In this document: piece after piece, positions 1-23,505 of the stretch
How positions within the stretch are numbered: the stretch's first letter is position 1
Layout of the letters: each line of letters begins with the position of its first letter
IMG/VR virus record: IMGVR_UViG_3300030329_001933
Location: 1-63,953 of that record
Direction: 5' to 3' (one strand)
DNA from: a virus
Taxonomy: Duplodnaviria; Caudoviricetes
Length of the DNA stretch: 63,953 nt
Position numbers and translations under genes: made by a program
Notes under the pieces: model-generated
The model's input: the letters and a program-made list of their open reading frames with translations, nothing else
What the model was told of the DNA's origin: nothing
Database searches by the model: none

Positions 1-99
1 CCTTATAGTAGAAATATATAGACCTAATAAAGATATTAACGAAGACTTAATGGTTTACTACGAGGTAGGAGATAAGTACCCTATTATAAACGCTGGTGA
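1..99. repeat. Terminal overlap, copy 1 (identical to 63855-63953); circular assembly
   Basis: Exact 99-nt identity of both window ends, inside a continuous reading frame. Confidence 0.97.
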
Positions 100-2433: not shown

Positions 2434-3591
2434 ATGGCACGAAGAGTGAAACCTAAGATAAAGTATAAGAAAAATAAAAAAACCCCTAAAGCTTTTGTTG
2501 GAGCTACCATGGCAGCCTTAGGTGCAGCTAAAATGATTACTGGAGCTATACAAAAAAGAAGAGCTAAGAAAGCTGAAGCAGCTTTTGATAAAAGTAGGTT
2601 AGAAACTCAGGTTAGTAAAGCCACTAAAGAAATGGCTGACGAACCTATAGACCAAGGCTACATAGAGAACATACAACAACAACAAGCCTCTGATAGGGCC
2701 TCTGCTATGGGTGCTTTATCTAAAGACCCTAGAAATATATTACCAGGAGTAATGGGCTTAGAGGGTCAAAAGAGGAAGGAAGATATAGCTTTATTAAAAT
2801 TACAGCAAGACGCTAAAACTGAAGCTATGAGTAACCTAGCTAAAGAGCAGCAGGCTGTAGATAAAAGAAAGGCTGAGATTGCAGAACAAGAGCTTGCAGG
2901 TATTGTGGGTGAGAAAGCTGCAGGGCAACAAAACTTGTTTGGCGGTGCTGAAGATGTTGTTAGTGGATTTGGAGCTATGGCTAAAAAAGGTGCTAAGATA
3001 GATGCTGAAGATGGTGGAGTAACTCCAGGAGAGTTTAGCCACGATGAAAACCCTATTGATATGGTTCAAGATGGAGAGAAGATTGGTGAGGCTACAGGTG
3101 GTGAGCTAATCCTTCCTCCTGATGATGTTGAAGAAATTAGATCAGCTCTTAGTAGTGGAGATAAGAATATTGCTTTTCAACTTATGGAGGATTTAGTTGC
3201 CAAGTATGATAAGAACGTTATAGGTGACGATGAAGACCCTGAAGCTCAAGAAGGGGCTAAGGTTCAGGAACCTACTGTACCACCTTTAGATAGCGATAGA
3301 GCTAATGAGATTGTTAAGGTTATGAAGGAGAACGCTACGCAGGTTAGAAACGTTGGAGAACTTCCTTTTGATGAAGACCCTACAAACCCAGCAGGTTTAG
3401 TTAACTACATAGGAGGGAAACTTTCATTTGATATAGACTCAACTAACGTAGCTGAGATTGACTTTATCAAGAACTACAGAGAGCATTTAATTAAAGAAAA
3501 AGGTAGAGCTGACTCACCTGAAATGAAGCATGGAGGCTATCTAGCAAAGGTTAAAGCTAGAATAGGGTCGTACATGAAATCAAAATACTAA
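2434..3591 (+). CDS. Putative internal virion (ejected cargo) protein 1
   Basis: 385 aa; basic N-terminus, Gly/Ala hydrophobic stretch, Q/A-rich helices, SHDENPID...EATGGE motif; follows muzzle gene. Confidence 0.6.
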   Translation: MARRVKPKIKYKKNKKTPKAFVGATMAALGAAKMITGAIQKRRAKKAEAAFDKSRLETQVSKATKEMADEPIDQGYIENIQQQQASDRASAMGALSKDPRNILPGVMGLEGQKRKEDIALLKLQQDAKTEAMSNLAKEQQAVDKRKAEIAEQELAGIVGEKAAGQQNLFGGAEDVVSGFGAMAKKGAKIDAEDGGVTPGEFSHDENPIDMVQDGEKIGEATGGELILPPDDVEEIRSALSSGDKNIAFQLMEDLVAKYDKNVIGDDEDPEAQEGAKVQEPTVPPLDSDRANEIVKVMKENATQVRNVGELPFDEDPTNPAGLVNYIGGKLSFDIDSTNVAEIDFIKNYREHLIKEKGRADSPEMKHGGYLAKVKARIGSYMKSKY

Positions 3592-3594
3592 AAC

Positions 3595-5025
3595 ATGGCT
3601 GGAGAAGGTTTATTTTTCACAGGGCAGGTTCTTAAAAACAATCGTGATCTTTTAAAGGAAGAGAATGCTAGGCAAAAACTTGCCCTGCAAAGAGAGCAAC
3701 TTGAACTTCAAAAACAAGCTGCCGCAGACAAGAGAAGAGCTGATAGAGAGAAAGGGAAGAAGGATTTAGCTCAGACTTTTTCTATAGAAGATATTAATGC
3801 CGACTACGTTCCATTTATAAATAACTCTATATCAGACTATAAGGGTTTTGTCTCTGATAACTATCAAGCTATACAGGATGGTGATAGCGAAGTCCTTAGA
3901 CAGAAAAGAGAGATGGAGAGGGACCTTACAAACAATACAGCCCTTTTAAAGCAAAGATCTACAAGTCTTCAAAACTACAGAACAACAGTAGACGAAGGTG
4001 AGGATTTAATAAACTTTAATGTAGATGATGATGGTAATTACATGCACGAAAATTATCATCAACAGTTTTTAGATGGTCTATCCCAAGGGCTTGATATTTC
4101 AGAACTTAATAAGCAGTATAACATAGATTCAAAAATGACTGTTGAAGGCAAGTGGGAAGACCCTTCTATGCTTTTAATTAAAGGTGTCATAAATAAGCCT
4201 ACAGGTTTTTACGTTAACGAAAAAACAGGGGAAGAGTTTAATATAGTGTCTGGTAAACAAAAGGACGAATCTAGACAAGAAATTGCTAGAGGGTTAACTA
4301 TTAGTGATAACCTTAGTTGGGATAACCTAGACTACAGAAGAATATATAACAGGAAAAGAGTTAGAGTTTCTGACGGAACTACAGTTAATGCTCAAGAAGC
4401 TTTTTTCGCAGAGTCTTATCAGGGTGGTGGAAATACTAATCCATCTCCAGAACTACTTGCTAAGCTAGACCCGTCTAATGAAAATTTATTTGATAGAAAG
4501 GTTGCTGATGAGTACGCAAACTACTTGGCAGGTAAGATAACTGAAGAAGGATTTAAAAACGCTCCATCAGTTAGTAAAGGAATACCTTCTAAGGGTAAAG
4601 GAAAAGGTGATAAGTCAGTGGATACCTCTTTTTATTACGGTCAATCTAAGAACGTTTTACCATTTGGTGATGTCCAGGTTAAGAGTGATGAAGGGTTCTA
4701 TGACGAGTCCGCAACAGGTAAGGTTTCTATAGGTCCTGAAAGCTTACTTCCAGGTCAGGCTGGATTATCTGAGGAGTTTAATAAAGAGTTTCAAAGCTTA
4801 GTTGGTAGTGGAGATCAGCGTACAGTACCTGCTAATGTTATAGGTGTTTACGTAACCTCTAACAATGTCCCTGTTGCTAAAGTTCAATTGGAGGGAGGTA
4901 ACCAACAAGTCTTGGTTCCTTTATCTAATTTAAGTAACTTCGCAGAGAAGCTAAAGGGTAGAGCAGGAGAAATATACAGTATGTCTAAGCAATCTGCAGT
5001 AGCGATAGATACATCAAAATATTAA
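3595..5025 (+). CDS. Putative internal virion (ejected cargo) protein 2
   Basis: 476 aa, N-terminal coiled coil, position between cargo genes. Confidence 0.55.
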   Translation: MAGEGLFFTGQVLKNNRDLLKEENARQKLALQREQLELQKQAAADKRRADREKGKKDLAQTFSIEDINADYVPFINNSISDYKGFVSDNYQAIQDGDSEVLRQKREMERDLTNNTALLKQRSTSLQNYRTTVDEGEDLINFNVDDDGNYMHENYHQQFLDGLSQGLDISELNKQYNIDSKMTVEGKWEDPSMLLIKGVINKPTGFYVNEKTGEEFNIVSGKQKDESRQEIARGLTISDNLSWDNLDYRRIYNRKRVRVSDGTTVNAQEAFFAESYQGGGNTNPSPELLAKLDPSNENLFDRKVADEYANYLAGKITEEGFKNAPSVSKGIPSKGKGKGDKSVDTSFYYGQSKNVLPFGDVQVKSDEGFYDESATGKVSIGPESLLPGQAGLSEEFNKEFQSLVGSGDQRTVPANVIGVYVTSNNVPVAKVQLEGGNQQVLVPLSNLSNFAEKLKGRAGEIYSMSKQSAVAIDTSKY

Positions 5026-5035
5026 GAAACGAATA

Positions 5036-8000
5036 ATGAACGAAGAAGCATTAAAAGATGCCTACAGCTTGTTTACACAATCAGGCTACAGCGGCTCACA
5101 AGATGAGTTTTACACTTTATTATCTGACAACGCTGAAGCGTTTGCAGACTCTTATGCTTTATTTAAAGGATCTGGATATAAGGGGTCTGAAGATAATTAC
5201 AAAGAGTTATTAGGCTTAAAAAAAAAAGATTCTTCAGCATTACAAGATGCGGCTGCTCAGATGGCTTCAGGGGATACTCCATCAACATCGGATCTTTCTC
5301 AGTCTTCTTTGGAACAAGACGTTCAAGCTAGTTTAGAGGAAAGATTATCTGGGTTTAGAGACCTTCCTGAACAGGAGCAATTAAATGCTGTAAATAACGA
5401 AGCTAAAAAACCTTTCTACGAGGCTCAAGGTATTGACTACCAAGAGATGCTTAACTTTCAATCTGTACTTGACAATCAAAAGCAAGAAAAGCAGGAAGAA
5501 GAAGAGGTTAGCGAAGAGTCTAGCTTCCTATCAAATCTATACGACAAAATAACAAGTACCGAAGATTTAGAGCAGGATATGTTTACTACAGACGTAGACC
5601 TGGCTAATCAATATTTTGCTGACAACAGAGATAAAATGAGGTCAGCTAAAGCTCAATACTCTAGAGCTAGATTTGACGATATACTTAAAACGTCAAAGGA
5701 TAACCAAGAATTTGCTAAAAGAATAGAAGACGCAGACATTGACACCAATGATCTTGCAATGCCAGAACTAAATATTGATGGTCAATCTAAATCCTTTAAC
5801 GAGTGGTTAGACTATTGGATGGAGGGTGACAATGTTGAGGATCAGCAAAAAGCTATTAAAGAGCAGGAGGAGTATGATAACGCTATAAAAGAAGGTATGA
5901 GTGCCGAAGAGGCTTCTGAAAAGTTCCTCAAAACTCAGGTTCCTGATATATCTATTAATGTTCCCAAAGAGTCTGACCCCAATTACAAAGCGTTAAAGTA
6001 TGCTGACGATCTAATGAACAGACAATTAGGTTCTGGTAGTAGCAGAACCTTTGATGCTTTTGAAGGTCTTTTAGCTACTACTGTTGATTTAGGAGCAGGA
6101 TTATTAGAACAAGTTGAGAAAGTTGGGGCACTTTCTGCGTCTGCTCAGTCAGGTAGCACTATGCCTTGGGATTTGTATATGATGAAGGGTGGTCACTTTG
6201 CTAACAAGGTTAGGGATTACGCAAACGATATAAGAGAAAACACAAGAATACCTGAAGAGGGTTCTATATCTGAGGCTATATTAAATGGTAACGTTGAAGA
6301 TGCTGTGTACCAAACAGCAAGTGGCGTAGCTAATGCTATCCCTTTTACTGTTGCTGTGGCTTTAGCCGCACCTGTCGCAGGGCCTACTGGGGCTTTAGTT
6401 CTTGGTGGTGCGTCAGCAGCAGGTATGAAGTCTTTAGAGCTCAAAGAGAGGAGAAGAGTTGGTATAGAAGAGGGTACTAAAGATGCTGATATAAAGAATT
6501 GGCAAATACTTGTTAGTGAAACCGTTACAGGTGTAGCGGAAGGGTTTTTTGAGAGGTATACTCAAAGAATATTGCGAGCTGCTAAACTTGCAGGAGCCAA
6601 TAAAAATGTAGTATTTGAAAGTTACATAGAGGGTATAAAAAAGTCTATTAAACAAGAGGTTCCTAGTGAGGTGGCTACAGAGTTATCTACTTACTTTACA
6701 GATGTTGGGCTTGAGTTAGAAGAATTTGACTCAGGAGAGTTTGCAATTAGAGTAGTAGACACAAGTATTATATCATCCTTATTCGGTGGTAGTACTTATG
6801 TTTCAACCAGAGGTGCTACATCTATGGTTAATAAACTAAATATAATCAACGACAACACCTCTGTAATCTTTACTAACGAGAAAGGTGAGACAAAGGAAGT
6901 GTCTAGAGGTGAAGCTATAAACTTTGCTAAAGACCCAGAGATAGCTCAACAGATTAGAGATGGTAAGCTTAAGGTTGACTACTCTATGAATGACGCAGCT
7001 AAACAAGCTATAGAAGATTTAGTTTATGGATACACTGCCCCTGATGCTCAACAAGCTAGAGCTGAGATGTTCGAGAAGGAGAAGGTTGTATCTAATCTAT
7101 CTAGAAAAATTAATAAAGCTAAAGAAGAAGGTACTGAAATATCTAACGAGGATGTTTCTAACCTAGCTCAAGCTTTATCTGAGATGGAATCTGAAGGCAA
7201 GAAGTCTAAGTATAACGTTACTAAAAGCACTAAGGCTGCTAGAAGCGAGGCTAACAAAGTCCTTAAAGATAATAACATAGAGATAGTAGATGCTGTAAAC
7301 TCTCAAAATACATCTATATCTAACGTTACAGAAACTGTAGAGGCTACAAAGATAGACAATCAAAAGCAGTACGACTCTGTTAAGAAACAGTTAAAGGATG
7401 GTAAAGGAAAGCCAACTATAGTTCAGTCTCAAAATCAAAGTGGTGTTAGGATTGACGGAGAGGTGTCTCAAACTTCAGATATAACTCAAGGTGAGTTTAA
7501 AAATGCTTCTGTAGCTAAGAATGCTATGAAGGAGTTCGAGGCTAAGAGAGATGCTGCTAAGAGAGGGGAGATGATTGAAAGCGAATTGTTTCCTGCTAAC
7601 AATAAGTTGTTTACAAACACCAAGAAAGAAACCCTTGACGAAATACCTCAAGAGGTTATAGATAATAACGATTACCACATACTAACTTCAGAAAAAGAAG
7701 GTTTAACAGAGCAAGAAAGAGCCTCTAGAATGGAGGAGCTTAAATCTATGCTAGATGAGGCTGACGCAACTTATTATACCGTTCAGGGTGTTTATAACGG
7801 GGTTGCTGAAGAAAGCCTTGTGGTAACAGGAATAGATAACGCTACCGCTTTAAATATAGGTAATCAGTTCCAACAAGAGTCTATTTTCTCGTCTAAGGAT
7901 GGGTTAATGTTTGGTGATGGTAGTGTAGTTCCTTTAGATGGTGATGTATCAAAGGGTCCAGACGCTAGGAAAAGAGACGCTCTAACTATAATGAATGTTG

Positions 8001-11000
8001 GGGGTAGAAAATCCTCTATACATACAGGTCTTAACTGGGGTAATATGAGTTACGGTAAAAACTTTAACTCAGATAACATTCACAGGTTAGACGAGAGCGA
8101 TCCTAATTATGATAGTGAACTGTTCCAGGGATTAACTGACAGTAGAAAGAGAGCTTTAGGTTTTGCTTTTAAATTACTTAACTCTATTGGTGGCCTTAAC
8201 GTTACTATTGTTAGAAATAGTAAAGCTATGGAAGGTCAGCTTGAAGCTTTAGGTTACGACACAGCAAACAGAAACGCATCTTTCTTTAGGGGTGCTGACA
8301 AAACTATATACGTAAACCTTGAAACTGTTCGTGGCAATACTTTATTCCACGAGATAGTTCACCCAATGGTTGACTTTATTAAGAAGACTGATCCTGAGTT
8401 ATATAAGAGAATAGAGGGAGAGGTTTCTCAAGGTAAGGTTAAGAGAAGAGTGTTAAAGAATGGTCGTAAGGTAAAAGGATCTTACCTTCAGTGGGCTGAA
8501 GAAAACTACGCTGACTTATCTAAAGAAGGTCAAATAGAAGAGGCTTTTGCTGAGATGATGGGTGATGCTGCTTATGGTCACTTTAATAAGAGTCAATCTA
8601 CACTTAATAGAATTTTAGATATTGTTAGAGCTATGTTAGGTAAGCTTAACATAACTACTAATAAAGAAAACCCAGCAGCTATAAACCTAGATGAGATGTC
8701 TTTATCTGACATGAGAAAAAACTTAGCTGGTGCTTTAGTTGATGGTAGAAAGATTAACGTTGGGGGAATTGAATTTGAAGTTGGAGAGGTGAAGGTTGAT
8801 AAAGATAAGGTTAACAACTCAATTAGAACTCAGGTAGATAAATCAGAGCCTAACTCTGATCTTGGTGTTGTAAACGTAAACATACCAGACAACGTTCAAA
8901 CTCAAGAGATACGATTCCAAACTCCTGAATACTATCCAAACTTTGATATATCAAAAGTCAAAAGAGGTAGTATAAAAGAGTTTAATGGTCAGAAGGCTTT
9001 ACTTATGTTGACTGATAGATCGGCATCTGGTATGGTTGTATCTCCAACGGGTGTTAAGCATGAATTTGACGGAGGGGTGTTTTACCCTTACCAAGAAGAT
9101 ACAGGTGTTTGGGCATTCTCAGATAAGTCTGCAGCAACTAGAATGATTAACGCAGCAAAGGAGAGTGATGGTTTAGTATTCTTAACGGCTATGGCTCCAG
9201 GTTCTATTGATGGTAGCGTTAACATGTTTGATTACGTTATGAAAGAACTTGATCAAGCTATAAAAGATAAGAGAGCTACTAAGAAAGAGGTTCTAGACTT
9301 CCTTAATAAGAAGATGACTATAAAGTCTTTTGACTCTAAAGTTAAAGGTGAAGGGATAAAAACAGCTAAAGTTAAATCTGTAAAAGAGTTTAGTAATTTA
9401 GTTTTATCTATGCCTCAAGCTTTTGGTGTTAGGAAAGATATAATAAGGAAGTCTATCCAGAGTAAGATATTTGAGAAGTGGGGCGTACCTTCTATGCAGG
9501 AAATGTATGATGTTGTAAATCAAGATATTGTAAAAAACCTTAAGGGTAACCCTATAGTGTCTGCTATTAGGATAGATACAGAGGCTGGATATGTAGATTC
9601 TAGAACTGACGAAAGTATTAAAGATCACCCTACCTACCCATACGTTGTTAAAGGAGAGCCCTTAATGATATTTGACGAATCTATTGACGCTTCAGAAGTT
9701 TGGGATGAGCTCAACTTAGCTGATAAGTTTTTAATAGATTCTAAGACAGGAGAAAAACTAAGTGAAGGTACAACTCAAGCTAGAAGACAAAGAAAGATTG
9801 AGATGGCTAGACCTGTTGTTGAGATTAGAATGCAGGCTGCTGAAGTAGCAGAAGAATATGTAAATGACTTAGATCAGAAAATTAAATCTACGAGAAACTC
9901 TAAAGAATTACAAAGACTATTAGATATTAAATCTGGTTTAGCTTTTAGGTCTGGAGATTTAACAACTAAGGCTGAATATAAATTTAAAATGAGACCAGGC
10001 AGGAGCACTGGGCACTTTGGAACAGGTTTTTATTTTTTCAGCGACCTTAATAGAGCTAAGGCTTATGATGACAGAAGAGTTTCTGTTATTAACTTAAATA
10101 ATTATAATTTAGCTCCTGGTACTATTGAGCTGCACGATGCTCTTAAATTTATAAACAATACATCTTACAGCTATGACTATAATAAATACACTGTAGATAG
10201 ACAACACCTTGGTCGTATAGCTTCTATTGTAGGAGTTGAACTACCTATTGGTAAAGATTTAAATCCTTACAAAGAACTTTTTGCCCCTAAAGGTGCTAAA
10301 GCTTATGCTGAAAAGTATAATGCTTTAGTAGCAGAGTTTGGTGAGGATCTTGTTAATGAAAATTATTATAAATATATAGACTTTGAACAAAAAAGATATA
10401 GTAACGTTAATCAACTGGTTAACGATATTAACTCAAAGTTAAACGATTCAAATAATATTGATAGTCCTTCGACTCTTGTAATGAAGGCCTTAGGTTTTGA
10501 AGGTATAGATTCTAGGTACAATAAAGATACTGACAACTCAATCTATGGTACTGTAGTTTATGATATAAAATCTGATCAAATAGGTGGTATTAGAATGCAG
10601 GCTCCTCAAGTAGAAGAAGTGCAGTGGCAAAAATCTAAGATAGGTAGAGGTGATTTAGCTATCACTAATAGAAGAGAAGAGGTTAGAGAGGCTGCGCAGG
10701 ATTATTTCGATGGTAAGATAAACCAGGAGGAGTATCTGGAGATCGTTCAAGAGAATAGCCCTATTAAGCCTATAACCCAATTTATAGACCCTGCAAGCCT
10801 ACAAGATATTAAAACTGCTGTAGGATCGAAGATCGAAGGTAGATTAGACGTTCCTATAGAAGAGGGAACTAAGGTTGGTTTACGATTAGATATTCCTGCT
10901 TACACAAATAAAAATATATGGGCTATTACCGTACACGAAGATGGCAGAGGTAAAGCTATGTCTTATACAAATGTTGCTAGAATAAACAACGTTGAGTTTA

Positions 11001-14000
11001 TATCTAGTCCTAAAGTTGCTTTAGGTATAGCTAGAGGAAGATTAAGTAAGTCTACCATTGCTAGAATGCTAGGTAGCTGGAGTCCTATTGAGGGGGCTGA
11101 CGCTAAATCTAGAGGTGAGAACGCTAAACAGATTGTAGCTAATGTAATGAACGATCCTTCTTGGGTGCAAGTTGGTATGAATCCATTTAGACACTCTTAC
11201 TTTTACGATAGATTAGATGGTATGCCAGTTGTAAGTGCAGAGCAGGTTATTCAGATTGGTGGGTTAGTTTACGCTAAGAACGCTGAGAAGACTACTCCTT
11301 TTGATGAGAGATTTGAAGACGCAAGAACAGGATTAAGATTCCAAGCTCCTACATACGATATGGAGTACACACCTAACGCTTTAGTATCTTTAGCTATGTT
11401 ATCTGATAACAACAGACAACCAGAACAGTGGGTTAAGGAGATAGGTAAAGGACTTAAGGGTGCTTCAAGGGATGTTGACACCATGGGATTACTAGACCTC
11501 CTTAAAGCTTATAAAAAGGACGCTAAGGTTAAGAGTATCCCTAAAGAAATGGTAGAGAGAATTATCGCTACCAATATGGCTCAGATAGAGACTAACATCT
11601 TAGATAAATGGTTAGTCCAGTATCCTGGAGCTGCTCTTCCTGGAGGTAAAAACTACAGAGAGTTCCTTATAAATGACAAATCTCCTGAGGATATATTTAC
11701 TGCTGGTCATTATTTTGGATTACCCTACGCATCGAAAAACCTTATAGCTTCTGCTAGGGTAGATGATAGAGTTGGTCCTAATGGGGAGAAGATTCTATTT
11801 GTTCAAGAGATACAATCTGATTGGGTTCAAGGAACTAATAAAGGTGACTTCAAGACTAAGGATGAGATTGCACAATTAGAGCGTGAAAAAGATGATTTAA
11901 TCGGAAAAAACGATATTCTAAAAAACGAAATAAGGTTTATTACAAATAAGTATTATAGAGAGTTTTTTAAAAACTTACCTGATGGAAAAATAAAAAGTGC
12001 TTTTCAAGAGCTCTATGAAGAAAATAATAAAGAAGATTTAATTAGCAGAAAATTGGGCTCAAAAGCGTCAGAGATAGCACCTATTCTTGTATCTCTTAAA
12101 TCAGAGTACGATAAATTAGATAAAGAGCGAGATAGTAATATTGATAGATTTCAAGACATAAAAAGTAGTTTAAAGAGTCTTAAACCCTACCTCCCTTGGA
12201 ATCAAACAGACCTATGGGTTGGTTTAACTATTAGAAAGTTAATCAATCAAGCCTCTAAAGAGGGGTACGATCAGATAGCCTTTGTTAATGGAGAGCAATC
12301 TGATATTATTCAAGGACATAGTGATGGTAGAACAGCAGAGTTCTATAACAAGATCGTTCCTAAAAATATCAACAACGAACTTAAGAGGTTAGTTAAAGGG
12401 ATGAAGTATGGGGTTGAAAGTATAATAGATATTTCTGACTTCCAGTCACTTAAACCTGATGCCTTCTTAGAATCTAGAAGATATTCACATACCTTATTCT
12501 TATCTCCGTTAGGACCAACTACTGGAGATACTGACGTTCACACGTTTGATTTTGACGCTTTAAAACCTTACAAACCCAAGTTAAATGTTTTTAACAGCGA
12601 AGACGGAAATACATATATAAGAACTGAGTTTACAGATCCTAATACTGAAGAGTTATTTGAAAAAACTTACAATAAATTTGATGAGGGTGGAAAAGATATG
12701 TCTGACATGCATTTTTACAATTTGACAAGTGCTATTCTATTTAAGTCTATTAACGAAAGGTTTACTTTACCTAAAAAAGAATACCCTAACGCAGTAATAA
12801 ACCTAACCCCAGAGCTTAAAGCTGCCACTGATAAGGTTGGTCCACTTAGGTTTCAAGTAGCTGGAGAGAGAGCCTCTTTAAGTGAAAAGATACAGGATAA
12901 CTTGATTATTGCTAACGAGATGGAGGAGCTTAATCAAGATGATAAACTATTTATTAAAAGAGCTACAGGTTGGGAAAGAGGTGCAGATGGCAAGTGGAGA
13001 TACGAGCTAGAACCTATTAAATTTAGAGAGGACATAATATCTTTAAGTGATGGTAAGCCAGATTTTACAAAGTTTAAGCGAACAACTAAAGAACAAGAGG
13101 ATGATTGGCTTGGACCTTTCGAGGGTGATTACGTTGCAAAATTAAAAGATATAATTGACGCTAAAGACTTATTTGAAGCTTACGGAGAAAAGAAAAAGAA
13201 TCCTAACGAGAAGTCTTTTATTGGATTTTACAAAGCTGTACCTGACTTAAATGTTTTCCTTAGACCTGGCAGGTCAGAGGGTGGTTCTTATATGCCTTTA
13301 AATCAAGCAATCACAGTAGAATATACCAAGAATACTAGTAAGAAAGAAATTCTTGGAACTATAGCTCACGAAGTGCAACACCATATACAAAAGATAGAAG
13401 GTTTTAGTAAGGGTCAAACATTTACGAAACAATACTACAAAGGTAAGCCAACTAAATCTTACTTAGAGTATTTTAGAAGTGCAGGAGAGGTTGAGGCTAG
13501 AAACGTAGAGACTAGGCTATCTATGGATCCTGTTCGTAGAAGAAACACCTTACTATCTTTAACTGAAGATGTTGCAAGGGAGGATCAGATAAGACTTCAA
13601 GCCCCTCAAGAGGAAGGAGAGGCTAACGTGTACACTTCAGGTTTAGCTACTATAGCTTGGGATGTATCTAAGTTTGTTGTAGATAAAGATTATCAACTTG
13701 GTACCTACCTGTCTAACATAAAGAATAAAGAGCTTAGGTATGACGCTAGGATGTCTGACCTTATATTTAGATCTCATGGTGAACACACTAATCAGGAGAT
13801 AAAAGAAATTATGGTTAGAAGTAAGGGTGAAGTTAACGCTGAACTCTTAAAGACAAGTATGATCGTAGAAGAGGTTAAGGCAGCTAACAAAGAGGCTAAC
13901 TTATCTAGGGAAGAGGTTGATAGACTTCTACATAACCTTGAAGAGGTTAAGGCTATGGAAGATTCAGACCTTAAGGTTGCTCTAATAAAGATGAGAGAGC

Positions 14001-16309
14001 ATATTGATTCCCTAAGTAGAACCCTTATAAGAGAAGGGCTCGTTAATGGTAAAACTCAGTTTACTATAGACGAAAACCTTGGTGTTTACGTAAACAGATC
14101 GTACAAGCAATTTGAGGTTGAAGGATGGAAGCAGACTGATAACGATATTATTAGAAAAGCTAAGTCTTTCCTTTACGCAGAGATTAAAGCTCAAAACGAA
14201 AAAGATGTTGAAGCAGGTCGTAAAGAGCCTATGACTGACAAAGATATAACAGCTAAGGTTAATGCTGAGTATAAAAAACTTATATCTAAAGAAGGTTTCC
14301 GTTACGCTTCTGGTAAGTCAACTCAAAGCGATAACCTAACTATGGTTCAATCTATCTTCAAAAGAAGAAAGAATGTTCCTGTTGAAATAAGAGATCTTTG
14401 GGGAGAGATAGATAACCCTTACTACAACTACGTTACAAGCGTAAACCAAATATCTAGAACTATAGCTGCTCAAAGAATGTTTAGAGAGCTTAACTTTATT
14501 GGTGAAGGTAAGTTTATATCTAAGGACGCTACAGATTTTGCTGACAACGAGTTGTTAGGTGCTAAGTATGGCGATCTTGAAGGTATGTACGTAGATAACG
14601 AAATGTACGCAGTACTTAATAAGTCAGTTGAAAATCTAAACAACCCTGAGTGGTTGAACCTGTACTTAACAGCTGTACTCTTTAATAAGAAAATGAAGAC
14701 TGTATGGAATATAGGTACTCACGCTAAAAACATTATAGGTAACACCTCTTTTGCTACCATGAATGGTCACATAGGTTTTAATGGTGATATGTATAAAAAC
14801 ATTTCAACATCACTAAAAGCTTTTAAATCTATGAAGGAGGGTGAGTTTGCAGATCTTTACAGTGAACTTACTAGACTTGGTGTTGTATCTTCGTCTGCTT
14901 CTTTACAAGAGATTAGAGAGATAGCTAACGATATACAAATGTCTAAGTTCGATCTTACTGAGTATCTAGATGAGAATAGAGGTCCTATAAGTAAGAGAAT
15001 GGCTAAGACATCCAGGTTCTTCAAAGAGGGTGTAAAAGGCTTAGATAATATGTTAACAAAAGCCTACCAAGCTGAGGATGATATGTTTAAGATATTTGGA
15101 TTCTTATCTGAAAAGCAGAGGTATATTAAAGCTGGTATAGATCCTGTAACAGCTAAAGACATGGCTGCTAGAAACATAATAAACCTTTACCCTAACTACA
15201 ACGAGATACCAGGATTTATAAGAAAGCTAGGTAGATCTCCTGTAGTAGGATCATTCGTTGCTTTCCAGGCTGAAGCTGTTCGTAACACTAAGAACGCTGT
15301 TAAACTTGGATTTGAAGAGCTTGGTAGTAGTAACCCTAAAATAAGAAAGATAGGTGCTACTAGAGTCGCAGGTACTATATCTGTATTTGCCCTTATAGAG
15401 AGTCTTCAAATGGCTACCATACAAGCCCTTGGCGGGGCACTTGGTTTTACAGGTGGAGACGAAGAGGAGTTAGAGGATAGAGCTATTAGGCTTTTGCTCC
15501 CTGAATGGGACTCTACAGGTAAACTAGCGACAGTCGAAAGAGGCCGATTAGATAGTAGACAGGTAGAAGGTCAATCTGAACCTGATAAGTATTTTGACTA
15601 CGTAAATCTATCTAATACCTCTGGTGTTGGTTATATTAAAGATATTATGAGACTCGCTTTTACAGATATAGATTCTGAATTAGGGAAAGAAGAGTTTGAT
15701 GATACAGTAATGAATATACTAGAAGATGTGTACAAACCTTTCTTGGGAGAGGAGATGACTTTAATAGCGTTTAGAGAGGCTATTGATAATAGAGGTAAAA
15801 AGGTTTACAACCCTACGGACTCTTGGTACGAAAAGCTTGGTAAGATTATGTTATACGCAGGTAAGAAAATACAGCCTGGTATCACCAAAACAGCTTACAG
15901 AAACATAGAGTCTAGATGGGATTCAGACTCAGAGCTAGTACCTGAATACGAAACTTTAGCTGTCCTTGGTCTTAGAGTATCTAGGATAAACGTCAACAAA
16001 GGTTTAGCTATTAAGAGTAGGTTCCTTGTTAATGATATGAACGATATAGTGGGTAAGGCTACTATGAGAAACAAGATGGACATAATAAATGCTTACACTC
16101 AAAATAGTAAGTTCAATGGGTTTATAGACGAGATGGCTGATCTTTATTCTACAGCTAGACTTAACCAGGTGGCAGGTATAGATATAGAAAACATCTTAAG
16201 AAAGTCGGGTATTAGCGAGAAAATGTTAGATATTGTTAGAACTAGGTACTACAACAATTACTCAGAAGATGTAATTAATGTTGATGAAACCTACGGATTT
16301 GACAAATAA
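5036..16309 (+). CDS. Giant polyvalent ejected protein (two zincin HExxH domains, ADP-ribosyltransferase-like, EIQSD domain, LPD23-like, helical C-terminus)
   Basis: 3757 aa; TLFHEIVH...EEAFAE, GHFGTGFYF...GFEGID, FVQEIQSDW, TGWERGADGKWRYE, HEVQHHIQKIEGF...GEVEARNV. Confidence 0.8.
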   Translation: MNEEALKDAYSLFTQSGYSGSQDEFYTLLSDNAEAFADSYALFKGSGYKGSEDNYKELLGLKKKDSSALQDAAAQMASGDTPSTSDLSQSSLEQDVQASLEERLSGFRDLPEQEQLNAVNNEAKKPFYEAQGIDYQEMLNFQSVLDNQKQEKQEEEEVSEESSFLSNLYDKITSTEDLEQDMFTTDVDLANQYFADNRDKMRSAKAQYSRARFDDILKTSKDNQEFAKRIEDADIDTNDLAMPELNIDGQSKSFNEWLDYWMEGDNVEDQQKAIKEQEEYDNAIKEGMSAEEASEKFLKTQVPDISINVPKESDPNYKALKYADDLMNRQLGSGSSRTFDAFEGLLATTVDLGAGLLEQVEKVGALSASAQSGSTMPWDLYMMKGGHFANKVRDYANDIRENTRIPEEGSISEAILNGNVEDAVYQTASGVANAIPFTVAVALAAPVAGPTGALVLGGASAAGMKSLELKERRRVGIEEGTKDADIKNWQILVSETVTGVAEGFFERYTQRILRAAKLAGANKNVVFESYIEGIKKSIKQEVPSEVATELSTYFTDVGLELEEFDSGEFAIRVVDTSIISSLFGGSTYVSTRGATSMVNKLNIINDNTSVIFTNEKGETKEVSRGEAINFAKDPEIAQQIRDGKLKVDYSMNDAAKQAIEDLVYGYTAPDAQQARAEMFEKEKVVSNLSRKINKAKEEGTEISNEDVSNLAQALSEMESEGKKSKYNVTKSTKAARSEANKVLKDNNIEIVDAVNSQNTSISNVTETVEATKIDNQKQYDSVKKQLKDGKGKPTIVQSQNQSGVRIDGEVSQTSDITQGEFKNASVAKNAMKEFEAKRDAAKRGEMIESELFPANNKLFTNTKKETLDEIPQEVIDNNDYHILTSEKEGLTEQERASRMEELKSMLDEADATYYTVQGVYNGVAEESLVVTGIDNATALNIGNQFQQESIFSSKDGLMFGDGSVVPLDGDVSKGPDARKRDALTIMNVGGRKSSIHTGLNWGNMSYGKNFNSDNIHRLDESDPNYDSELFQGLTDSRKRALGFAFKLLNSIGGLNVTIVRNSKAMEGQLEALGYDTANRNASFFRGADKTIYVNLETVRGNTLFHEIVHPMVDFIKKTDPELYKRIEGEVSQGKVKRRVLKNGRKVKGSYLQWAEENYADLSKEGQIEEAFAEMMGDAAYGHFNKSQSTLNRILDIVRAMLGKLNITTNKENPAAINLDEMSLSDMRKNLAGALVDGRKINVGGIEFEVGEVKVDKDKVNNSIRTQVDKSEPNSDLGVVNVNIPDNVQTQEIRFQTPEYYPNFDISKVKRGSIKEFNGQKALLMLTDRSASGMVVSPTGVKHEFDGGVFYPYQEDTGVWAFSDKSAATRMINAAKESDGLVFLTAMAPGSIDGSVNMFDYVMKELDQAIKDKRATKKEVLDFLNKKMTIKSFDSKVKGEGIKTAKVKSVKEFSNLVLSMPQAFGVRKDIIRKSIQSKIFEKWGVPSMQEMYDVVNQDIVKNLKGNPIVSAIRIDTEAGYVDSRTDESIKDHPTYPYVVKGEPLMIFDESIDASEVWDELNLADKFLIDSKTGEKLSEGTTQARRQRKIEMARPVVEIRMQAAEVAEEYVNDLDQKIKSTRNSKELQRLLDIKSGLAFRSGDLTTKAEYKFKMRPGRSTGHFGTGFYFFSDLNRAKAYDDRRVSVINLNNYNLAPGTIELHDALKFINNTSYSYDYNKYTVDRQHLGRIASIVGVELPIGKDLNPYKELFAPKGAKAYAEKYNALVAEFGEDLVNENYYKYIDFEQKRYSNVNQLVNDINSKLNDSNNIDSPSTLVMKALGFEGIDSRYNKDTDNSIYGTVVYDIKSDQIGGIRMQAPQVEEVQWQKSKIGRGDLAITNRREEVREAAQDYFDGKINQEEYLEIVQENSPIKPITQFIDPASLQDIKTAVGSKIEGRLDVPIEEGTKVGLRLDIPAYTNKNIWAITVHEDGRGKAMSYTNVARINNVEFISSPKVALGIARGRLSKSTIARMLGSWSPIEGADAKSRGENAKQIVANVMNDPSWVQVGMNPFRHSYFYDRLDGMPVVSAEQVIQIGGLVYAKNAEKTTPFDERFEDARTGLRFQAPTYDMEYTPNALVSLAMLSDNNRQPEQWVKEIGKGLKGASRDVDTMGLLDLLKAYKKDAKVKSIPKEMVERIIATNMAQIETNILDKWLVQYPGAALPGGKNYREFLINDKSPEDIFTAGHYFGLPYASKNLIASARVDDRVGPNGEKILFVQEIQSDWVQGTNKGDFKTKDEIAQLEREKDDLIGKNDILKNEIRFITNKYYREFFKNLPDGKIKSAFQELYEENNKEDLISRKLGSKASEIAPILVSLKSEYDKLDKERDSNIDRFQDIKSSLKSLKPYLPWNQTDLWVGLTIRKLINQASKEGYDQIAFVNGEQSDIIQGHSDGRTAEFYNKIVPKNINNELKRLVKGMKYGVESIIDISDFQSLKPDAFLESRRYSHTLFLSPLGPTTGDTDVHTFDFDALKPYKPKLNVFNSEDGNTYIRTEFTDPNTEELFEKTYNKFDEGGKDMSDMHFYNLTSAILFKSINERFTLPKKEYPNAVINLTPELKAATDKVGPLRFQVAGERASLSEKIQDNLIIANEMEELNQDDKLFIKRATGWERGADGKWRYELEPIKFREDIISLSDGKPDFTKFKRTTKEQEDDWLGPFEGDYVAKLKDIIDAKDLFEAYGEKKKNPNEKSFIGFYKAVPDLNVFLRPGRSEGGSYMPLNQAITVEYTKNTSKKEILGTIAHEVQHHIQKIEGFSKGQTFTKQYYKGKPTKSYLEYFRSAGEVEARNVETRLSMDPVRRRNTLLSLTEDVAREDQIRLQAPQEEGEANVYTSGLATIAWDVSKFVVDKDYQLGTYLSNIKNKELRYDARMSDLIFRSHGEHTNQEIKEIMVRSKGEVNAELLKTSMIVEEVKAANKEANLSREEVDRLLHNLEEVKAMEDSDLKVALIKMREHIDSLSRTLIREGLVNGKTQFTIDENLGVYVNRSYKQFEVEGWKQTDNDIIRKAKSFLYAEIKAQNEKDVEAGRKEPMTDKDITAKVNAEYKKLISKEGFRYASGKSTQSDNLTMVQSIFKRRKNVPVEIRDLWGEIDNPYYNYVTSVNQISRTIAAQRMFRELNFIGEGKFISKDATDFADNELLGAKYGDLEGMYVDNEMYAVLNKSVENLNNPEWLNLYLTAVLFNKKMKTVWNIGTHAKNIIGNTSFATMNGHIGFNGDMYKNISTSLKAFKSMKEGEFADLYSELTRLGVVSSSASLQEIREIANDIQMSKFDLTEYLDENRGPISKRMAKTSRFFKEGVKGLDNMLTKAYQAEDDMFKIFGFLSEKQRYIKAGIDPVTAKDMAARNIINLYPNYNEIPGFIRKLGRSPVVGSFVAFQAEAVRNTKNAVKLGFEELGSSNPKIRKIGATRVAGTISVFALIESLQMATIQALGGALGFTGGDEEELEDRAIRLLLPEWDSTGKLATVERGRLDSRQVEGQSEPDKYFDYVNLSNTSGVGYIKDIMRLAFTDIDSELGKEEFDDTVMNILEDVYKPFLGEEMTLIAFREAIDNRGKKVYNPTDSWYEKLGKIMLYAGKKIQPGITKTAYRNIESRWDSDSELVPEYETLAVLGLRVSRINVNKGLAIKSRFLVNDMNDIVGKATMRNKMDIINAYTQNSKFNGFIDEMADLYSTARLNQVAGIDIENILRKSGISEKMLDIVRTRYYNNYSEDVINVDETYGFDK

Positions 16310-21974: not shown

Positions 21975-22172
21975 TTAAGCTTTTGTAAAATAATTAACTA
22001 GTGCCTCCCTTTCTGTTACGTGAATTAACTTAGATATTTTTCTAACGTGCTTAATTCTAAACTCGTCAGGTTTATCTAAGTATTTATCTAGGGTAGGTCG
22101 GCTTAACCCTAATCTTTCAGCTAACCAAATTTTACTAATCTGATTCTCTGTTAGTTTTTCTTTTAGTGTCAT
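21975..22172 (-). CDS. Cro/XRE-like HTH regulator
   Basis: ISKIWLAERLGLSRPTLDKYL. Confidence 0.8.
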   Translation of the reverse strand: MTLKEKLTENQISKIWLAERLGLSRPTLDKYLDKPDEFRIKHVRKISKLIHVTEREALVNYFTKA

Positions 22173-22936
22173 AAGGTTTCCATTATTAAGTGTTCGTCTA
22201 CGGACTCCTCATTATCTATAAAGAACCTCTTATAAAGCCCTAAAAGATATTTATACTCTTGTCTACCTCTCTCTATAAACTCATCGCCAGCATAGAAGAT
22301 CGACACGTTATAAGGTCTTTCTTTCTCTTGAGTTATAAATATAAACTCATCACAGCCAAAGCCATCCATATAGAAAGCTGATTGTCTGTCGTATCCATAC
22401 TTCTTGCAAGAGTTAGAGAAACCATAAAAGCTTCCATCTGCCGTAGTCTTAAGGTCTATAAGTACAGATCCGTTCCTATAATCAGCCTTACCTTTACAAA
22501 ATACGTCAGTATCCTCATCCTTCCAAGCGTTAGCTATTTCCCTTTTACCTTCCTTCTGTAGTAGGTCGTTAACCTCGTTATGAGAGAATAAAACATCTTG
22601 CATATACATAATCTTATCGTACTCTTTCTGTAAGATTATGGTAGTAGCATCAGGGTTGTTAGCCTTAAACTCCTTATAACCTTTAGTAGCCCTTGTAGAT
22701 GAGTCGAATACTAAAACCTTATTATTAAAATCGTTAGGTTCTAACATAGCTACATGATAAGCCCTTCCAAAGATCATGGGTAAGGTCTCTTTATTGAGTT
22801 CAGGATGATCCCTCATCATTCTGTAAGTTCTAACGTCCTGCTTTATTAACCCTAACTGCGAGTTTGTAACAAACTCGTAGTCAGAGTAATAAAAGGAGTC
22901 ATCGACCAACTTACTTATAAAGCTGTCTAAACTCAT
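22169..22936 (-). CDS. RecE/exonuclease VIII-like PD-(D/E)xK exonuclease (DUF3799-like)
   Basis: FGRAYHVAMLEP, CKGKAD, IDLKTT, YGYDRQSAFY. Confidence 0.85.
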   Translation of the reverse strand: MSLDSFISKLVDDSFYYSDYEFVTNSQLGLIKQDVRTYRMMRDHPELNKETLPMIFGRAYHVAMLEPNDFNNKVLVFDSSTRATKGYKEFKANNPDATTIILQKEYDKIMYMQDVLFSHNEVNDLLQKEGKREIANAWKDEDTDVFCKGKADYRNGSVLIDLKTTADGSFYGFSNSCKKYGYDRQSAFYMDGFGCDEFIFITQEKERPYNVSIFYAGDEFIERGRQEYKYLLGLYKRFFIDNEESVDEHLIMETL

Positions 22937-23505
22937 TATACTAGGGTTTTAGATATTTTAAGGACTTTATTAAGGTTGTCTTGTTGTGTCTTAGTCATGG
23001 TGTATCCACCCATTTTTTGCTCAACAACACTACCCTTACCATCCTCAATAGCCTTCATCATACTCTTATATTGAGAGTCTGTTAGCTTAGGTTTAGATGT
23101 AGCTTTCTTAGTGTTAGGGCTAGTTCCCTTAACTGCCATATTGCCATCATCATCATCTCCAGTAACTACACCTACGAATGATGCTAAAGCATATCTTCTT
23201 GCATAGGATATTGCAGAGCCTACGCCATGCGCATCTTCTTTTGCAGGTATGTAGCATGTTGATGCTAAATATTCTCCACTAGAATGTGATAGGATTGTTG
23301 TTACTCCACCTACATCTGTAGGCATCTGAATGATAGCTAACTCGTTGTCTGCTAGTAATTTACGAACAGAGTCCCATACTGATCCAAGATCGGCATAGCT
23401 TGACTTGAAGAAAGGATTTTTTGAGTTTTCTTTAGCGGGTCTTAGTTGAGACTGCACTTTCGATAAGGCAAGGGTTAGCTTGCCAATTGTTTCTGACTTT
23501 TCCAT
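22936..23505 (-). CDS. erf: ERF-family single-strand annealing protein
   Basis: KNPFFKSSYADL, TILSHSSGE, GSAISYARRYAL, DDDDG. Confidence 0.92.
   Translation of the reverse strand: MEKSETIGKLTLALSKVQSQLRPAKENSKNPFFKSSYADLGSVWDSVRKLLADNELAIIQMPTDVGGVTTILSHSSGEYLASTCYIPAKEDAHGVGSAISYARRYALASFVGVVTGDDDDGNMAVKGTSPNTKKATSKPKLTDSQYKSMMKAIEDGKGSVVEQKMGGYTMTKTQQDNLNKVLKISKTLV

Follow-up and report, generated by a model that had tools for sequence, protein, structure and literature searches.

Junction peptides at the borders of exchangeable cassettes in a giant, probable cargo protein of a marine crAss-like phage

Introduction

The idea that giant phage proteins are processed into individual enzymes is an old one, and processing of polyvalent proteins by zincins was predicted by Iyer, Burroughs, Anand, de Souza and Aravind in 2017 (PMC5512222). 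Where along such a protein the cuts would fall is the question raised by a giant ORF in the viral genome analyzed here (the window, that is the whole stretch of 63,953 nucleotides of IMG/VR record IMGVR_UViG_3300030329_001933), and its junction peptides offer exact places for testing that idea. A first-pass annotation had described the product of this ORF as an ejected protein carrying an array of effector cassettes, delimited by short linkers that would serve as a cleavage site, an unfolding signal or a recombination joint.

Results and discussion

A giant ORF at the place of virion cargo genes

The window reads as a complete circular genome of 64 kb, in which the giant ORF forms a single open frame of 3,757 aa (Table 1). 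Upstream of it, and on its strand, are terminase, portal, capsid, ring-like and muzzle genes. The muzzle gene is recognized by Pfam crAss_MUZ (1.7e-14) and stops at 2395; two ORFs come between it and the giant ORF. Encoded with virion and packaging genes and directly downstream of the muzzle gene, as is Crassvirales cargo, the giant ORF sits where crAss-like phages keep their virion cargo genes, in line with the first-pass annotation's view of an ejected protein. Several unrelated globular domains share this one very long polypeptide, and the cassettes are found independently and in other orders among relatives of the protein. The layout comprises a conserved N-core, five exchangeable cassettes and a conserved C-domain, the last being 24% identical to proteins annotated as "virion structural protein" in Cellulophaga phages phi19:3, phi18:3 and phi13:2. 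We infer that the giant ORF probably encodes a polyvalent cargo protein of the phage type, which a marine crAss-like phage infecting Bacteroidota would pack into its virion and inject.

In PhicrAss001, the cargo proteins gp45, gp46, gp47, gp49 and gp50 are large and have been proposed to be kept within capsid and tail and ejected ahead of the DNA (Bayfield et al. 2023, PMC10172136). The gene block downstream of a muzzle gene and the large products are common to both phages. In contrast to PhicrAss001, the genome measures 64 kb instead of about 100 kb and no RNA polymerase domain was recognized; furthermore, Pfam and PHROGs profiles assigned the giant ORF to no PhicrAss001 cargo family. The available text of PMC10172136 makes no mention of proteolysis, cleavage or a protease. 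Giant size, an LPD domain and a metallopeptidase domain are also shared with gp47 of phi24B, a polyvalent protein of 2,811 aa that mass spectrometry found in virions and that has been proposed to be an ejection protein (bioRxiv 10.64898/2026.04.10.717836). The two differ in phage lineage and domains, and the available text of that preprint reports neither processing of gp47 nor a junction motif in it.

Table 1. Coordinates of the giant ORF, its junctions and its modules in the window.
Feature	Coordinates (nt)	Strand	Remarks
Giant ORF, probable phage-type polyvalent cargo protein	5036..16309	+	LPD23 above Pfam cut-off; downstream of crAss muzzle gene
N-core, aa 1-1262	5036..8821	+	Common to all close relatives; BLASTP matches over about 1-1255; alignment A7
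Hydrophobic, membrane-segment-like stretch, aa 434-464	6335..6427	+	Read from sequence; sole run of at least 18 such residues in the protein
HEIVH zincin motif of N-core, aa 1105-1109	8348..8362	+	About 150-155 aa before junction 1; EEAFAEMMGD downstream
Junction 1, IRTQ-VD	8822..8833	+	Position conserved as [ISDP][RK]xQ (alignment A7); followed by a different module in P0027, P0029, P0044
Junction 2, IRFQ-TP	8909..8920	+	Conserved in relatives having module 1; no swap seen
Module 1, 301 aa, unannotated	8921..9823	+	Cassette family of 14; no Pfam family above cut-off
Junction 3, IRMQ-AA	9824..9835	+	Abuts C-domain in P0016-P0019 and L014; abuts module 4 in P0004 and L015
Module 2, 251 aa, putative "ART-like"	9836..10588	+	Cassette family of 6
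Junction 4, IRMQ-AP	10589..10600	+	Many BLASTP matches begin at aa 1852
Module 3, 244 aa, RLDIPAY domain	10601..11332	+	Cassette family of 23; weakly like Pfam Phage_L5_gp82
Junction 5, LRFQ-AP	11333..11344	+	Many BLASTP matches begin at aa 2100; head APTYDMEYTPN behind at least 6 different tails
Module 4, 500 aa, EIQSD domain, unannotated	11345..12844	+	Cassette family of 40
Junction 6, LRFQ-VA	12845..12856	+	Tail KAATDKVGP-LRFQ joined to at least 7 different heads
Module 5, 244 aa, LPD23 then zincin	12857..13588	+	HEVQH at nt 13367-13381, GEVEARN, ETEDVAREDQ tail
Junction 7, IRLQ-AP	13589..13600	+	This motif type before C-domain head in 29/29 distinct contexts
C-domain, about 900 aa, conserved	13601..16309	+	Has relatives among virion structural proteins from Cellulophaga phages

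Seven copies of a short motif lie between the modules

All seven [IL]R[FMLT]Q linkers reported by the first-pass annotation were recovered in place, at aa 1263, 1292, 1597, 1852, 2100, 2604 and 2852, within the central 42% of the giant protein. Residue shuffles gave a mean of 0.17 copies (sd 0.41) and none of 5,000 reached seven. A looser pattern, [ILVM]R.Q, found the same seven sites and no extra one in the giant protein. We also scanned the window in six frames (stop-free stretches of at least 60 aa) with the wider pattern [ILVM]R[FMLTIVYW]Q, which yielded nine matches, seven of them the junctions. The eighth is an IRMQD in the portal gene at 47866, a single copy close to chance expectation, and the ninth belongs to a stop-free run of 60 aa at 33083, inside annotated ORF 32862-34013 and on the other strand. 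The motif was absent from the capsid and scaffold proteins in the six-frame scan. A similar peptide containing Lys, LKTQVP (aa 298; nt 5927), was considered as an eighth junction and dropped because it is not conserved in relatives.

The pieces between motifs measure 305, 255, 248, 504 and 248 aa, with a 29-aa leader between sites 1 and 2, in agreement with the five modules of about 240-500 aa first described. The statement that several linkers are followed by AP holds at three sites (aa 1852, 2100 and 2852), but the others are followed by VD, TP, AA or VA. The anti-defence or host-takeover roles that the first-pass annotation suggested for the modules are putative, as are most of its labels, and three modules are without a known fold. 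For module 2, the search for an ART gave no Pfam family at E ≤ 0.05, and the best BLASTP piece (E 0.99) fell within the ART-PolyVal domain of protein P0119. Module 3 scored 16.8 bits against Phage_L5_gp82, a Pfam family of unknown function with a cut-off of 27, its homologues P0142 and P0159 reaching 33.5 and 33.8 bits; no PDB sequence relative of the module was found. Module 4 received no annotation from Pfam, PDB or Atlas. Mosaic breakpoints occur inside it (near aa 2189/2195 and 2458-2475), so that not every breakpoint coincides with a junction. The reading of module 5 as LPD23 plus zincin was confirmed, as Pfam LPD23 covers aa 2607-2659 (30.3 bits, cut-off 27) and HEVQH is followed by GEVEARN. 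Foldseek on the model of this module returned weak rows (E 0.13 to 1.5), nearly all of them zincin peptidases.

Cassette exchange maps to the junctions

Module gain, loss and exchange in relatives map to the linkers at six of the seven sites. This comparison had been named in advance by the first-pass annotation, and its plug-and-play view of the region is upheld. Between one and four motif copies are present in 45 of the 47 closest relatives (P0002-P0048), the other two having FKAQ-AP and LKFQ-AP at equivalent joints. In P0016 and L014, aa 1-1607 are fused directly to 2852-3750; in P0004 and L015, module 1 directly adjoins module 4; and in L126, module 2 directly adjoins the C-domain. P0002 shares aa 1852-2104 at 91% identity and 2604-2856 at 89%, with flanks at 35-36%. 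Furthermore, 1,143 of 5,892 BLASTP match starts fell within -5 to +8 of a motif, about 20 times the mean of 55 (maximum 136) in 200 random placements, while 81% of the starts lie away from motifs. Match ends behaved alike (1,014 of 5,488 near a motif versus a mean of 67 in random placements).

The 113 inter-motif segments of 64 proteins group into 13 cassette families, and 115 junction contexts were covered by a test of linkage. When the upstream module was the same and the downstream module different (293 pairs), agreement was 0.86 at P4 and 0.94 at P2 versus 0.59 at P1' and 0.46 at P2'. Conversely, with the same downstream and a different upstream module (408 pairs), agreement was 0.34 at P4 and 0.32 at P2 versus 0.75 at P1' and 0.94 at P2'. 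The residues before the Gln go with the upstream module and the A/V-P goes with the downstream module.

The giant protein resembles the polyvalent proteins of Iyer et al. (PMC5512222) in its many unrelated domains, its LPD and HExxH zincins, its virion-gene setting and its presumed delivery with DNA. Unlike these, its borders bear a defined peptide, to which cassette exchange maps. Linker, boundary or inter-domain features go unmentioned in the main text of PMC5512222, where "junction" refers to Holliday junctions only.

Selection acts on the peptide

Across 55 distinct DNA contexts of the motif, Gln is encoded by CAA at a frequency of 0.69 against a gene background of 0.64, and Arg by AGA and AGG at 0.65 and 0.33 against 0.72 and 0.18. 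Except for Pro, where CCT is in mild excess, codon choice equals the gene-wide background; therefore, selection bears on the peptide and not on the DNA. This result disfavors the recombination joint, one of the roles first suggested for the linker. We consider it very unlikely that the motif is a short stretch of shared DNA where cassettes swap, with the peptide as a by-product. Cassette exchange does map to the motif, genes for an ERF-type annealing protein and an exonuclease are present in this phage (22169-23505), and the copies at 9824 and 10589 are identical in 17 of 18 bases. However, 12-18 bases are short for homologous exchange, and the window's seven copies differ among themselves at synonymous sites, keeping amino-acid classes while bases vary. 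The motif DNA could aid cassette exchange as a side effect.

Every cassette border carries a junction peptide (hydrophobic-[R/K]-x-Gln, then [A/V]-Pro) held by selection on the protein, and cassettes swap between phages exactly at this peptide.

Junctions as putative cleavage sites

A recurrent site motif at module borders is what a polyprotein would present, and among the roles first suggested for the linker, a putative cleavage site is the best reading. The junction peptide would most likely be an endoprotease recognition site, and a 420-kDa precursor would be cut there, in the capsid or following ejection, into N-core, single cassettes and C-domain. The invariant Gln would adjoin the scissile bond, as F/M-Q or Q-A/V. 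The most likely cutter would be a built-in zincin, namely the N-core HEIVH domain, present in all relatives, the LPD23-zincin cassette, or both. We hold this reading, a polyvalent cargo protein with endoprotease sites at its junctions that is most likely cut by its own zincin, with about even confidence.

HExxH with a downstream Glu is found twice, as HEIVH/EEAFAEM in the N-core (alignment A7) and as HEVQH/GEVEARN in module 5 (alignment A8). All 48 family proteins have an HExxH about 150 aa before junction 1, and the first His of the N-core motif is kept in 24 of 25 locus rows of A7. In the second zincin, HExxH, E and ETEDVAREDQ are invariant in 34 sequences.

An unrecognized phage protease or a Gln-preferring host protease might cut the junctions instead, which we rate as unlikely. 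The N-core zincin is degenerate in L036 (QEIIH) and P0080 (HDIVH), both of which still keep junction motifs, the LPD23-zincin cassette is missing from most family members by Pfam, and Pfam, PHROGs and NCBIfam leave roughly two thirds of the ORFs in the window without a family. In RNA-virus polyproteins, moreover, 3C-like and potyviral NIa proteases cleave behind a Gln in comparable contexts; a small residue follows, and the site is lineage-specific and matched to the protease. On the other hand, a scan of the window's ORFs for protease families (Pfam, PHROGs, NCBIfam) found no separate gene but an M15 endolysin in what appears to be a complete circular genome, and the protein encoded between the portal and capsid genes is acidic and resembles a scaffold, not a protease. 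The motif is also confined to the giant protein, whereas head-maturation proteases usually process capsid or scaffold too, and lineages with variant motifs have widely differing hosts. The resemblance to RNA-virus polyproteins would be one of logic only (short Gln sites between modules, lineage variants), as the candidate cutters here are zincins and no chymotrypsin-fold protease was recognized in the window.

The T4 prohead cleavage rule is Leu-x-Glu. In T4 and in giant phages such as SPN3US, a prohead protease cuts internal head proteins at short motifs (PMC10052503). Packaging for ejection and short consensus cut motifs would be shared with these proteins, cutting being a proposal here. In contrast, no prohead protease family was found in the ORFs scanned, the motif does not occur in capsid or scaffold, and the motif classes differ.

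It also seems improbable to us that the peptide stays uncut and acts as a signal marking the seam where each module begins, as an unfolding or threading handle for the tail channel or as a strand docking modules to the portal or DNA. PhicrAss001 cargo has been proposed to cross the tail partly unfolded (PMC10172136), and Iyer et al. (PMC5512222) state that the virion RNA polymerase of N4, a polyvalent protein bearing a zincin, is packaged without being cut. In the model of module 5 (mean pLDDT 69), junction 7 is helical, forming the end of the last helix and not a free linker; junction 6 is coil with a pLDDT under 50. Low confidence also surrounds junction 4 in the model of aa 1585-2110, and is uninformative since that whole model has a mean pLDDT of 47; module 2 was modeled too poorly for a fold search. 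However, a seam signal would not account for the abrupt change in linkage between P2 and P1', nor for the Pro found two residues after the motif Gln in 52 of 84 contexts. It also leaves unexplained that all copies change jointly from lineage to lineage, a pattern matching the protease/site pairs of viral polyproteins.

Junction peptides in other lineages

Other phage lineages have recurring junction peptides of their own: IKFQK, V[KR]FS[KLR] (VKFSK), KFSL[KR], IRYR and TRQQ. Our literature search found no analogous junction peptides described in print for giant phage proteins. P0098 and P0099 contain 6-8 copies of [KR]FS (PKFSLK, TKFSLR, IRFSLA), where about 2 would be expected, and Pfam domains begin shortly after such a copy in both (four of five domains after 5-15 aa in P0098, six of seven after 3-44 aa in P0099).

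The same 4-mer stands on both sides of the LPD23-zincin module in five of 31 lineages, versus 0.2% of 912 cross-lineage pairs; 25 of the 31 have no matching 4-mer on the two sides. Among 95 further proteins, the 4-mer preceding LPD23 recurs exactly in 18 copies against 1.8 expected, and 83 of the 95 are without an exact recurrence. Generalization of the junction peptide to other lineages is thus partial. Junctions 6 and 7 may belong to the LPD23-zincin module proper, as its conserved ends: across these 95 proteins, R occupies position 2 of the 4-mer ahead of LPD23 in 60, F/Y position 3 in 62 and Q/R position 4 in 68, and in other lineages ETEDVAREDQ is followed by a hydrophobic-x-hydrophobic tail.

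Going further than cleavage by a built-in zincin in this one protein, we tentatively consider it possible, if somewhat doubtful, that phage polyvalent cargo proteins are genuine polyproteins carrying a lineage-specific "cut-here" peptide matched to the built-in zincin. In that case the precursor would be cut at its lineage's own peptide after ejection, releasing a changeable set of enzymes, and a new cassette would become functional simply by insertion between two junction peptides. The x-R-F/Y-Q/R that precedes LPD23 in thousands of proteins would then represent the site at which the LPD23-zincin module ancestrally cleaved itself. A profile search with module 5 retrieved 13,270 representative proteins at E ≤ 0.001.

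The junction peptide is confined to one giant protein

The 3,757-aa window protein contains seven copies of the peptide [IL]R[FMLT]Q, at residues 1263, 1292, 1597, 1852, 2100, 2604 and 2852 (junctions 1 to 7), which correspond exactly to the nucleotide positions reported in the first-pass annotation. In shuffles, the motif occurred 0.17 times on average and none of 5,000 shuffles reached seven copies. A six-frame scan of the window with a wider pattern revealed two hits beyond the seven: IRMQD in the portal protein (47866, +), and a hit at 33083 in a 60-aa stop-free stretch lying on the opposite strand inside an annotated ORF. Since chance would yield about as many extra hits in a proteome this large, the motif is a property of the window protein alone, within its central 42%. 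As about one copy is expected in such a proteome, the portal copy is probably fortuitous. A Lys-containing look-alike in the N-terminal core (N-core, aa 1-1262), LKTQVP (aa 298, nt 5927, +), was dropped as a candidate site, being devoid of conservation in relatives.

Cassettes are exchanged at the junction peptides

A search using aa 1250-2900 as the query returned 184 proteins at E <= 0.001 out of 2,080 scored candidates, 120 of which were listed. Among these listed matches, the 47 closest relatives (P0002-P0048) have the N-core (~aa 1-1255) and the C-domain (~2852-3750) in common with the window protein, and share its middle only in parts. One to four copies of the motif were found in 45 of these 47 listed proteins, and the remaining two carry FKAQ|AP and LKFQ|AP at the same joints. 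Among the 72 more distant matches listed (P0049-P0120), 20 have between one and three hits to the pattern.

BLASTP matches to the window protein repeatedly begin at residues 1852, 2100, 2604 and 2852, and several relatives bring together parts that are distant in the window protein: residues 1-1607 are fused straight to 2852-3750 in P0016-P0019 and at the related locus L014, module 1 is fused to module 4 in P0004 and L015, and module 2 to the C-domain in L126. P0002 shares 91% identity over 1852-2104 and 89% over 2604-2856, versus only 35-36% in the N-core and C-domain. When 79 proteins were compared all against all, 1,143 of 5,892 match starts were located from -5 to +8 residues from a motif, compared to a random mean of 55 and a maximum of 136 in 200 trials. 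Likewise, 1,014 of 5,488 match ends fell near a motif (random mean, 67).

The same upstream tail, ...KAATDKVGP-LRFQ, precedes at least seven different heads, and the head APTYDMEYTPN... comes after at least six different tails. The head of the C-domain (...NVYTSGL) follows a motif of the junction type in all 29 distinct contexts, with more than 10 different upstream tails, a count that omits 31 sequences without a match to the head pattern. Cutting 64 family proteins at the motif produced 113 segments belonging to 13 cassette families, five of which are present in the window protein. A module swap, the check put forward in the first-pass annotation, was seen in some relative at six of the seven sites and not at the second (1292), where the preceding 29-aa piece always travels with module 1. 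No stand-alone cassette cleanly bounded by the motif was found among the shorter proteins searched; for P0122 and P0125, with starts 11-20 aa ahead of a junction, the gene calls may have been cut short.

The seam lies next to the conserved Gln

We compared 115 distinct junction contexts pairwise, with Gln as P1. In the 293 pairs sharing the upstream module and differing in the downstream module, residues agreed at frequencies of 0.86 at P4 and 0.94 at P2, and of 0.59 at P1' and 0.46 at P2'. In the 408 pairs with different upstream modules and the same downstream module, agreement was 0.34, 0.32, 0.75 and 0.94 at the same respective positions. Hence, I/L and F/M go with the upstream cassette, while A/V-Pro goes with the downstream cassette. 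This switch occurs around Gln, itself invariant by definition of the pattern, and places the seam at either F/M|Q or Q|A/V.

The junction could in principle be a DNA recombination joint, at which cassettes are exchanged because of the nucleotide sequence itself. This explanation is the least likely of those considered as the seven copies vary at synonymous sites (AGA, CGA and AGG for Arg, CAA and CAG for Gln, TTA and CTT for Leu), and codon use across 55 distinct family motif contexts does not depart from that of the gene as a whole, apart from slightly more CCT for Pro. These observations indicate that the peptide is conserved rather than a DNA site.

Two zincin motifs and the other domains of the window protein

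Judged by its sequence, the window protein displays the defining features of phage-type polyvalent proteins (Iyer et al. 2017). PHROGs and NCBIfam searches gave no family for it, and Pfam detected LPD23 above the cut-off (aa 2607-2659) and DUF3293 just under it. Module 5 combines LPD23 with a zincin on its C-terminal side. Alignment of 34 module 5 sequences, taken from unrelated viral contigs, shows little or no variation in ATGWERGxDGKWRYE, HExQHxIQxxEGF, GEVExxN and the tail ETEDVAREDQ. This tail ends the module and is followed by a hydrophobic-x-hydrophobic pattern in 34/34 aligned sequences (window 12857-13588; loci L045-L124). So conserved a terminus in a protease module suggests a tail that contacts the module's own active site.

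The structure model of module 5 had a mean pLDDT of 69 (80-92 in the core). Foldseek hits were all weak (E between 0.13 and 1.5) and, with few exceptions, were to zincin peptidases (M61, a putative Zn peptidase, lethal factor, PprI/IrrE, ArdC, PPEP and CapP), and the sole match of the module 5 profile against PDB sequences was IrrE (E 0.86). In the VIA-align fold search, a helical hairpin at residues 217-281 accounted for the hits (Z <= 6.0), which told nothing about the fold. A profile of module 5 matched 13,270 representative proteins at E <= 0.001, including many giants, some with up to eight copies. For instance, P0164, P0165 and P0166 are 5,800-7,200 aa long and carry five to eight LPD23-zincin modules per chain.

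The N-core has a zincin motif too: HEIVH (aa 1105), located about 155 residues ahead of the first junction and having EEAFAEMMGD downstream of it. HExxH occurs at this position in 48/48 family proteins and in 24/25 aligned loci. Comparison of the two zincins using hhalign gave a probability of 35% and covered only a strand and HExxH, too little to call them closely related, and the N-core profile found nothing meaningful among PDB sequences.

The other modules gave fewer clues. Module 2, labelled ART-like in the first-pass annotation, is at best a putative ART, and module 3 weakly resembles Phage_L5_gp82, a Pfam family of unknown function (16.8 bits here, 33.5 and 33.8 in homologues). Annotation searches found nothing for modules 1 and 4, profiles of modules 3 and 4 had no hits at E <= 1 against PDB sequences, and module 4 retrieved only unnamed viral clusters (0.84-0.85) from the ESM Atlas. 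A model of aa 1585-2110 (16 rows), which covers modules 2-3 and junctions 3-5, was of low quality (mean pLDDT 47). Distant relatives of the C-domain include Cellulophaga phage proteins annotated as virion structural. In Pseudoalteromonas phage vB_Pun_Y3, its homologue is a 1,027-aa ORF of its own located right after a 3,421-aa polyvalent ORF, so that the architecture fused in the window protein occurs here in naturally divided form. No recognisable junction peptide occurs at this split, nor does such a motif lie ahead of the C-domain part in gp129 of Cellulophaga phage phi19:3.

Predicted processing at the junction peptides

In 2017, the zincins of polyvalent proteins were predicted to process these proteins into single effectors (PMC5512222). 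The portion of that text available to us defines no processing site, and the idea was thus not directly testable until now. Full-text literature searches, together with look-ups in the main text of PMC5512222 and in PMC10172136, turned up no account of such junction motifs for polyvalent proteins. By these sources, polyvalent proteins and the idea of their processing are known in print, and the new elements are a defined junction peptide and the cassette exchange mapped to it.

Four features of the junctions, namely a short peptide at each border, invariant key residues, variants that change in concert across a lineage, and linkage that flips abruptly at Gln, form the same pattern as protease sites in viral polyproteins. 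An endoprotease would cut the giant protein at these peptides. Given this pattern, the built-in zincin, the confinement of the motif to the window protein and the lack of any other recognisable protease in the genome, we regard endoproteolytic processing at the junctions as a prediction for which the chances are evenly balanced. Should processing occur, the odds that the cut is made by either of the two built-in zincins fall somewhat short of even. Complex prediction with the N-core zincin (residues 31-263 of the N-core alignment) and a 40-aa peptide around junction 5 favours neither side (score 0.00, mark 0.32).

Several observations count against cleavage. In the model of module 5, a helix terminates at junction 7. 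Both junctions flanking that module (6 and 7) may be conserved ends of the LPD23-zincin module itself, and breakpoints unmarked by any motif exist inside module 4. Furthermore, the N-core zincin motif is degenerate in L036 (QEIIH) and P0080 (HDIVH, aa 1289), yet both kept junction peptides. The rival explanations are that the junction peptide is an uncut seam or a threading signal, or that it is cut by an unknown protease.

For the cleavage reading, the locus supplies seven exact candidate sites, key residues (basic P3, Gln and A/V-Pro), two candidate proteases and many natural variants, sufficient material for a clean cleavage assay. Were these sites cut, the sequence alone would reveal where cassettes begin and end, so that the effectors carried by thousands of giant phage proteins could be told apart; the LPD23-zincin module by itself occurs in 13,270 representative proteins. 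Cleavage would also explain how injected enzymes are freely swapped among phages.

Junction peptides in other lineages

Other peptides recur in more distant relatives. IKFQK occurs two or three times each in P0050, P0051, P0053, P0069, P0072 and P0074, and V[KR]FS[KLR] three or more times in P0052, P0054, P0055 and P0058. P0098 and P0099 contain six to eight copies of [KR]FS (PKFSLK, TKFSLR, EKFSLK, IRFSLA) versus about two expected; a Pfam domain starts 5-15 residues after a copy in four of five cases in P0098, and 3-44 residues after a copy in six of seven in P0099. The 'PLxRFG domain', a name given to F116-like giant proteins, was rejected as a repeated linker as that protein has a single PLSRFG.

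In some viral contigs, the same peptide flanks the LPD23-zincin module on both sides (IRYR, KIKAQ, PQTRQQ, TFFQ). Exact both-side peptides were found in 5 of 31 distinct lineages, versus 0.2% of 912 cross-lineage pairs. In 25 of the 31, nothing similar appears within 35 residues of the module. In 95 further proteins, the 4-mer preceding LPD23 has Arg at position 2 (60/95), Phe/Tyr at position 3 (62/95) and Gln/Arg at position 4 (68/95), and the window motif resembles this widespread peptide. Exact recurrences of the 4-mer elsewhere in the same protein numbered 18 versus 1.8 expected, with any recurrence in only 12 of the 95 proteins. As read from these sequences, several lineages do have a junction peptide of their own, which is not a universal feature.

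Genome and host setting

At 63,953 bases, the window appears to be a whole phage genome in circularly permuted form, because the ORF at its 3' end (55636-63951) runs without a stop into the ORF entering at its 5' end to form a single 3,570-aa frame.

Features of the phage genome surrounding the giant protein gene
Feature	Coordinates	Strand	Remarks
Muzzle-containing ORF, 3,570 aa	55636-63953 + 1-2395		
Two ORFs, 385 and 476 aa			between muzzle gene and window protein ORF; no family
Window protein ORF, 3,757 aa	5036-16309	+	third ORF downstream of muzzle gene
ERF-family annealing protein beside PDDEXK exonuclease	22169-23505	-	
189-aa ORF with Cpn10 (GroES-like) domain	43233-43802	+	just upstream of terminase
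Terminase	44054-46147		
Portal	46144-48543		
SU10-type capsid protein	49725-51119		

Virion proteins assigned to PHROG families common to crAss-like phages are also encoded, and the wrap-around ORF matches Pfam crAss_MUZ (Crassvirus muzzle protein, 1.7e-14). This ORF is about three times as long as the crAss_MUZ model (1,224 positions); the muzzle-family matches are confined to approximately its last third, and its first ~2,100 aa are without annotation. A virion RNA polymerase is expected in Crassvirales. Neither an RNA polymerase nor a DNA polymerase was recognised in this 64-kb crAss-like genome using Pfam and PHROGs, and the former may sit unseen in one of the two giant ORFs. One phage gene encodes a type IX secretion C-terminal domain, which points to a Bacteroidota host. 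A nucleotide search with the region of the window protein gave no match among isolated phages. In PhicrAss001, the position downstream of the muzzle gene is occupied by the cargo proteins gp45-gp50 (PMC10172136). Finally, the ERF/PDDEXK recombination module could drive cassette shuffling.
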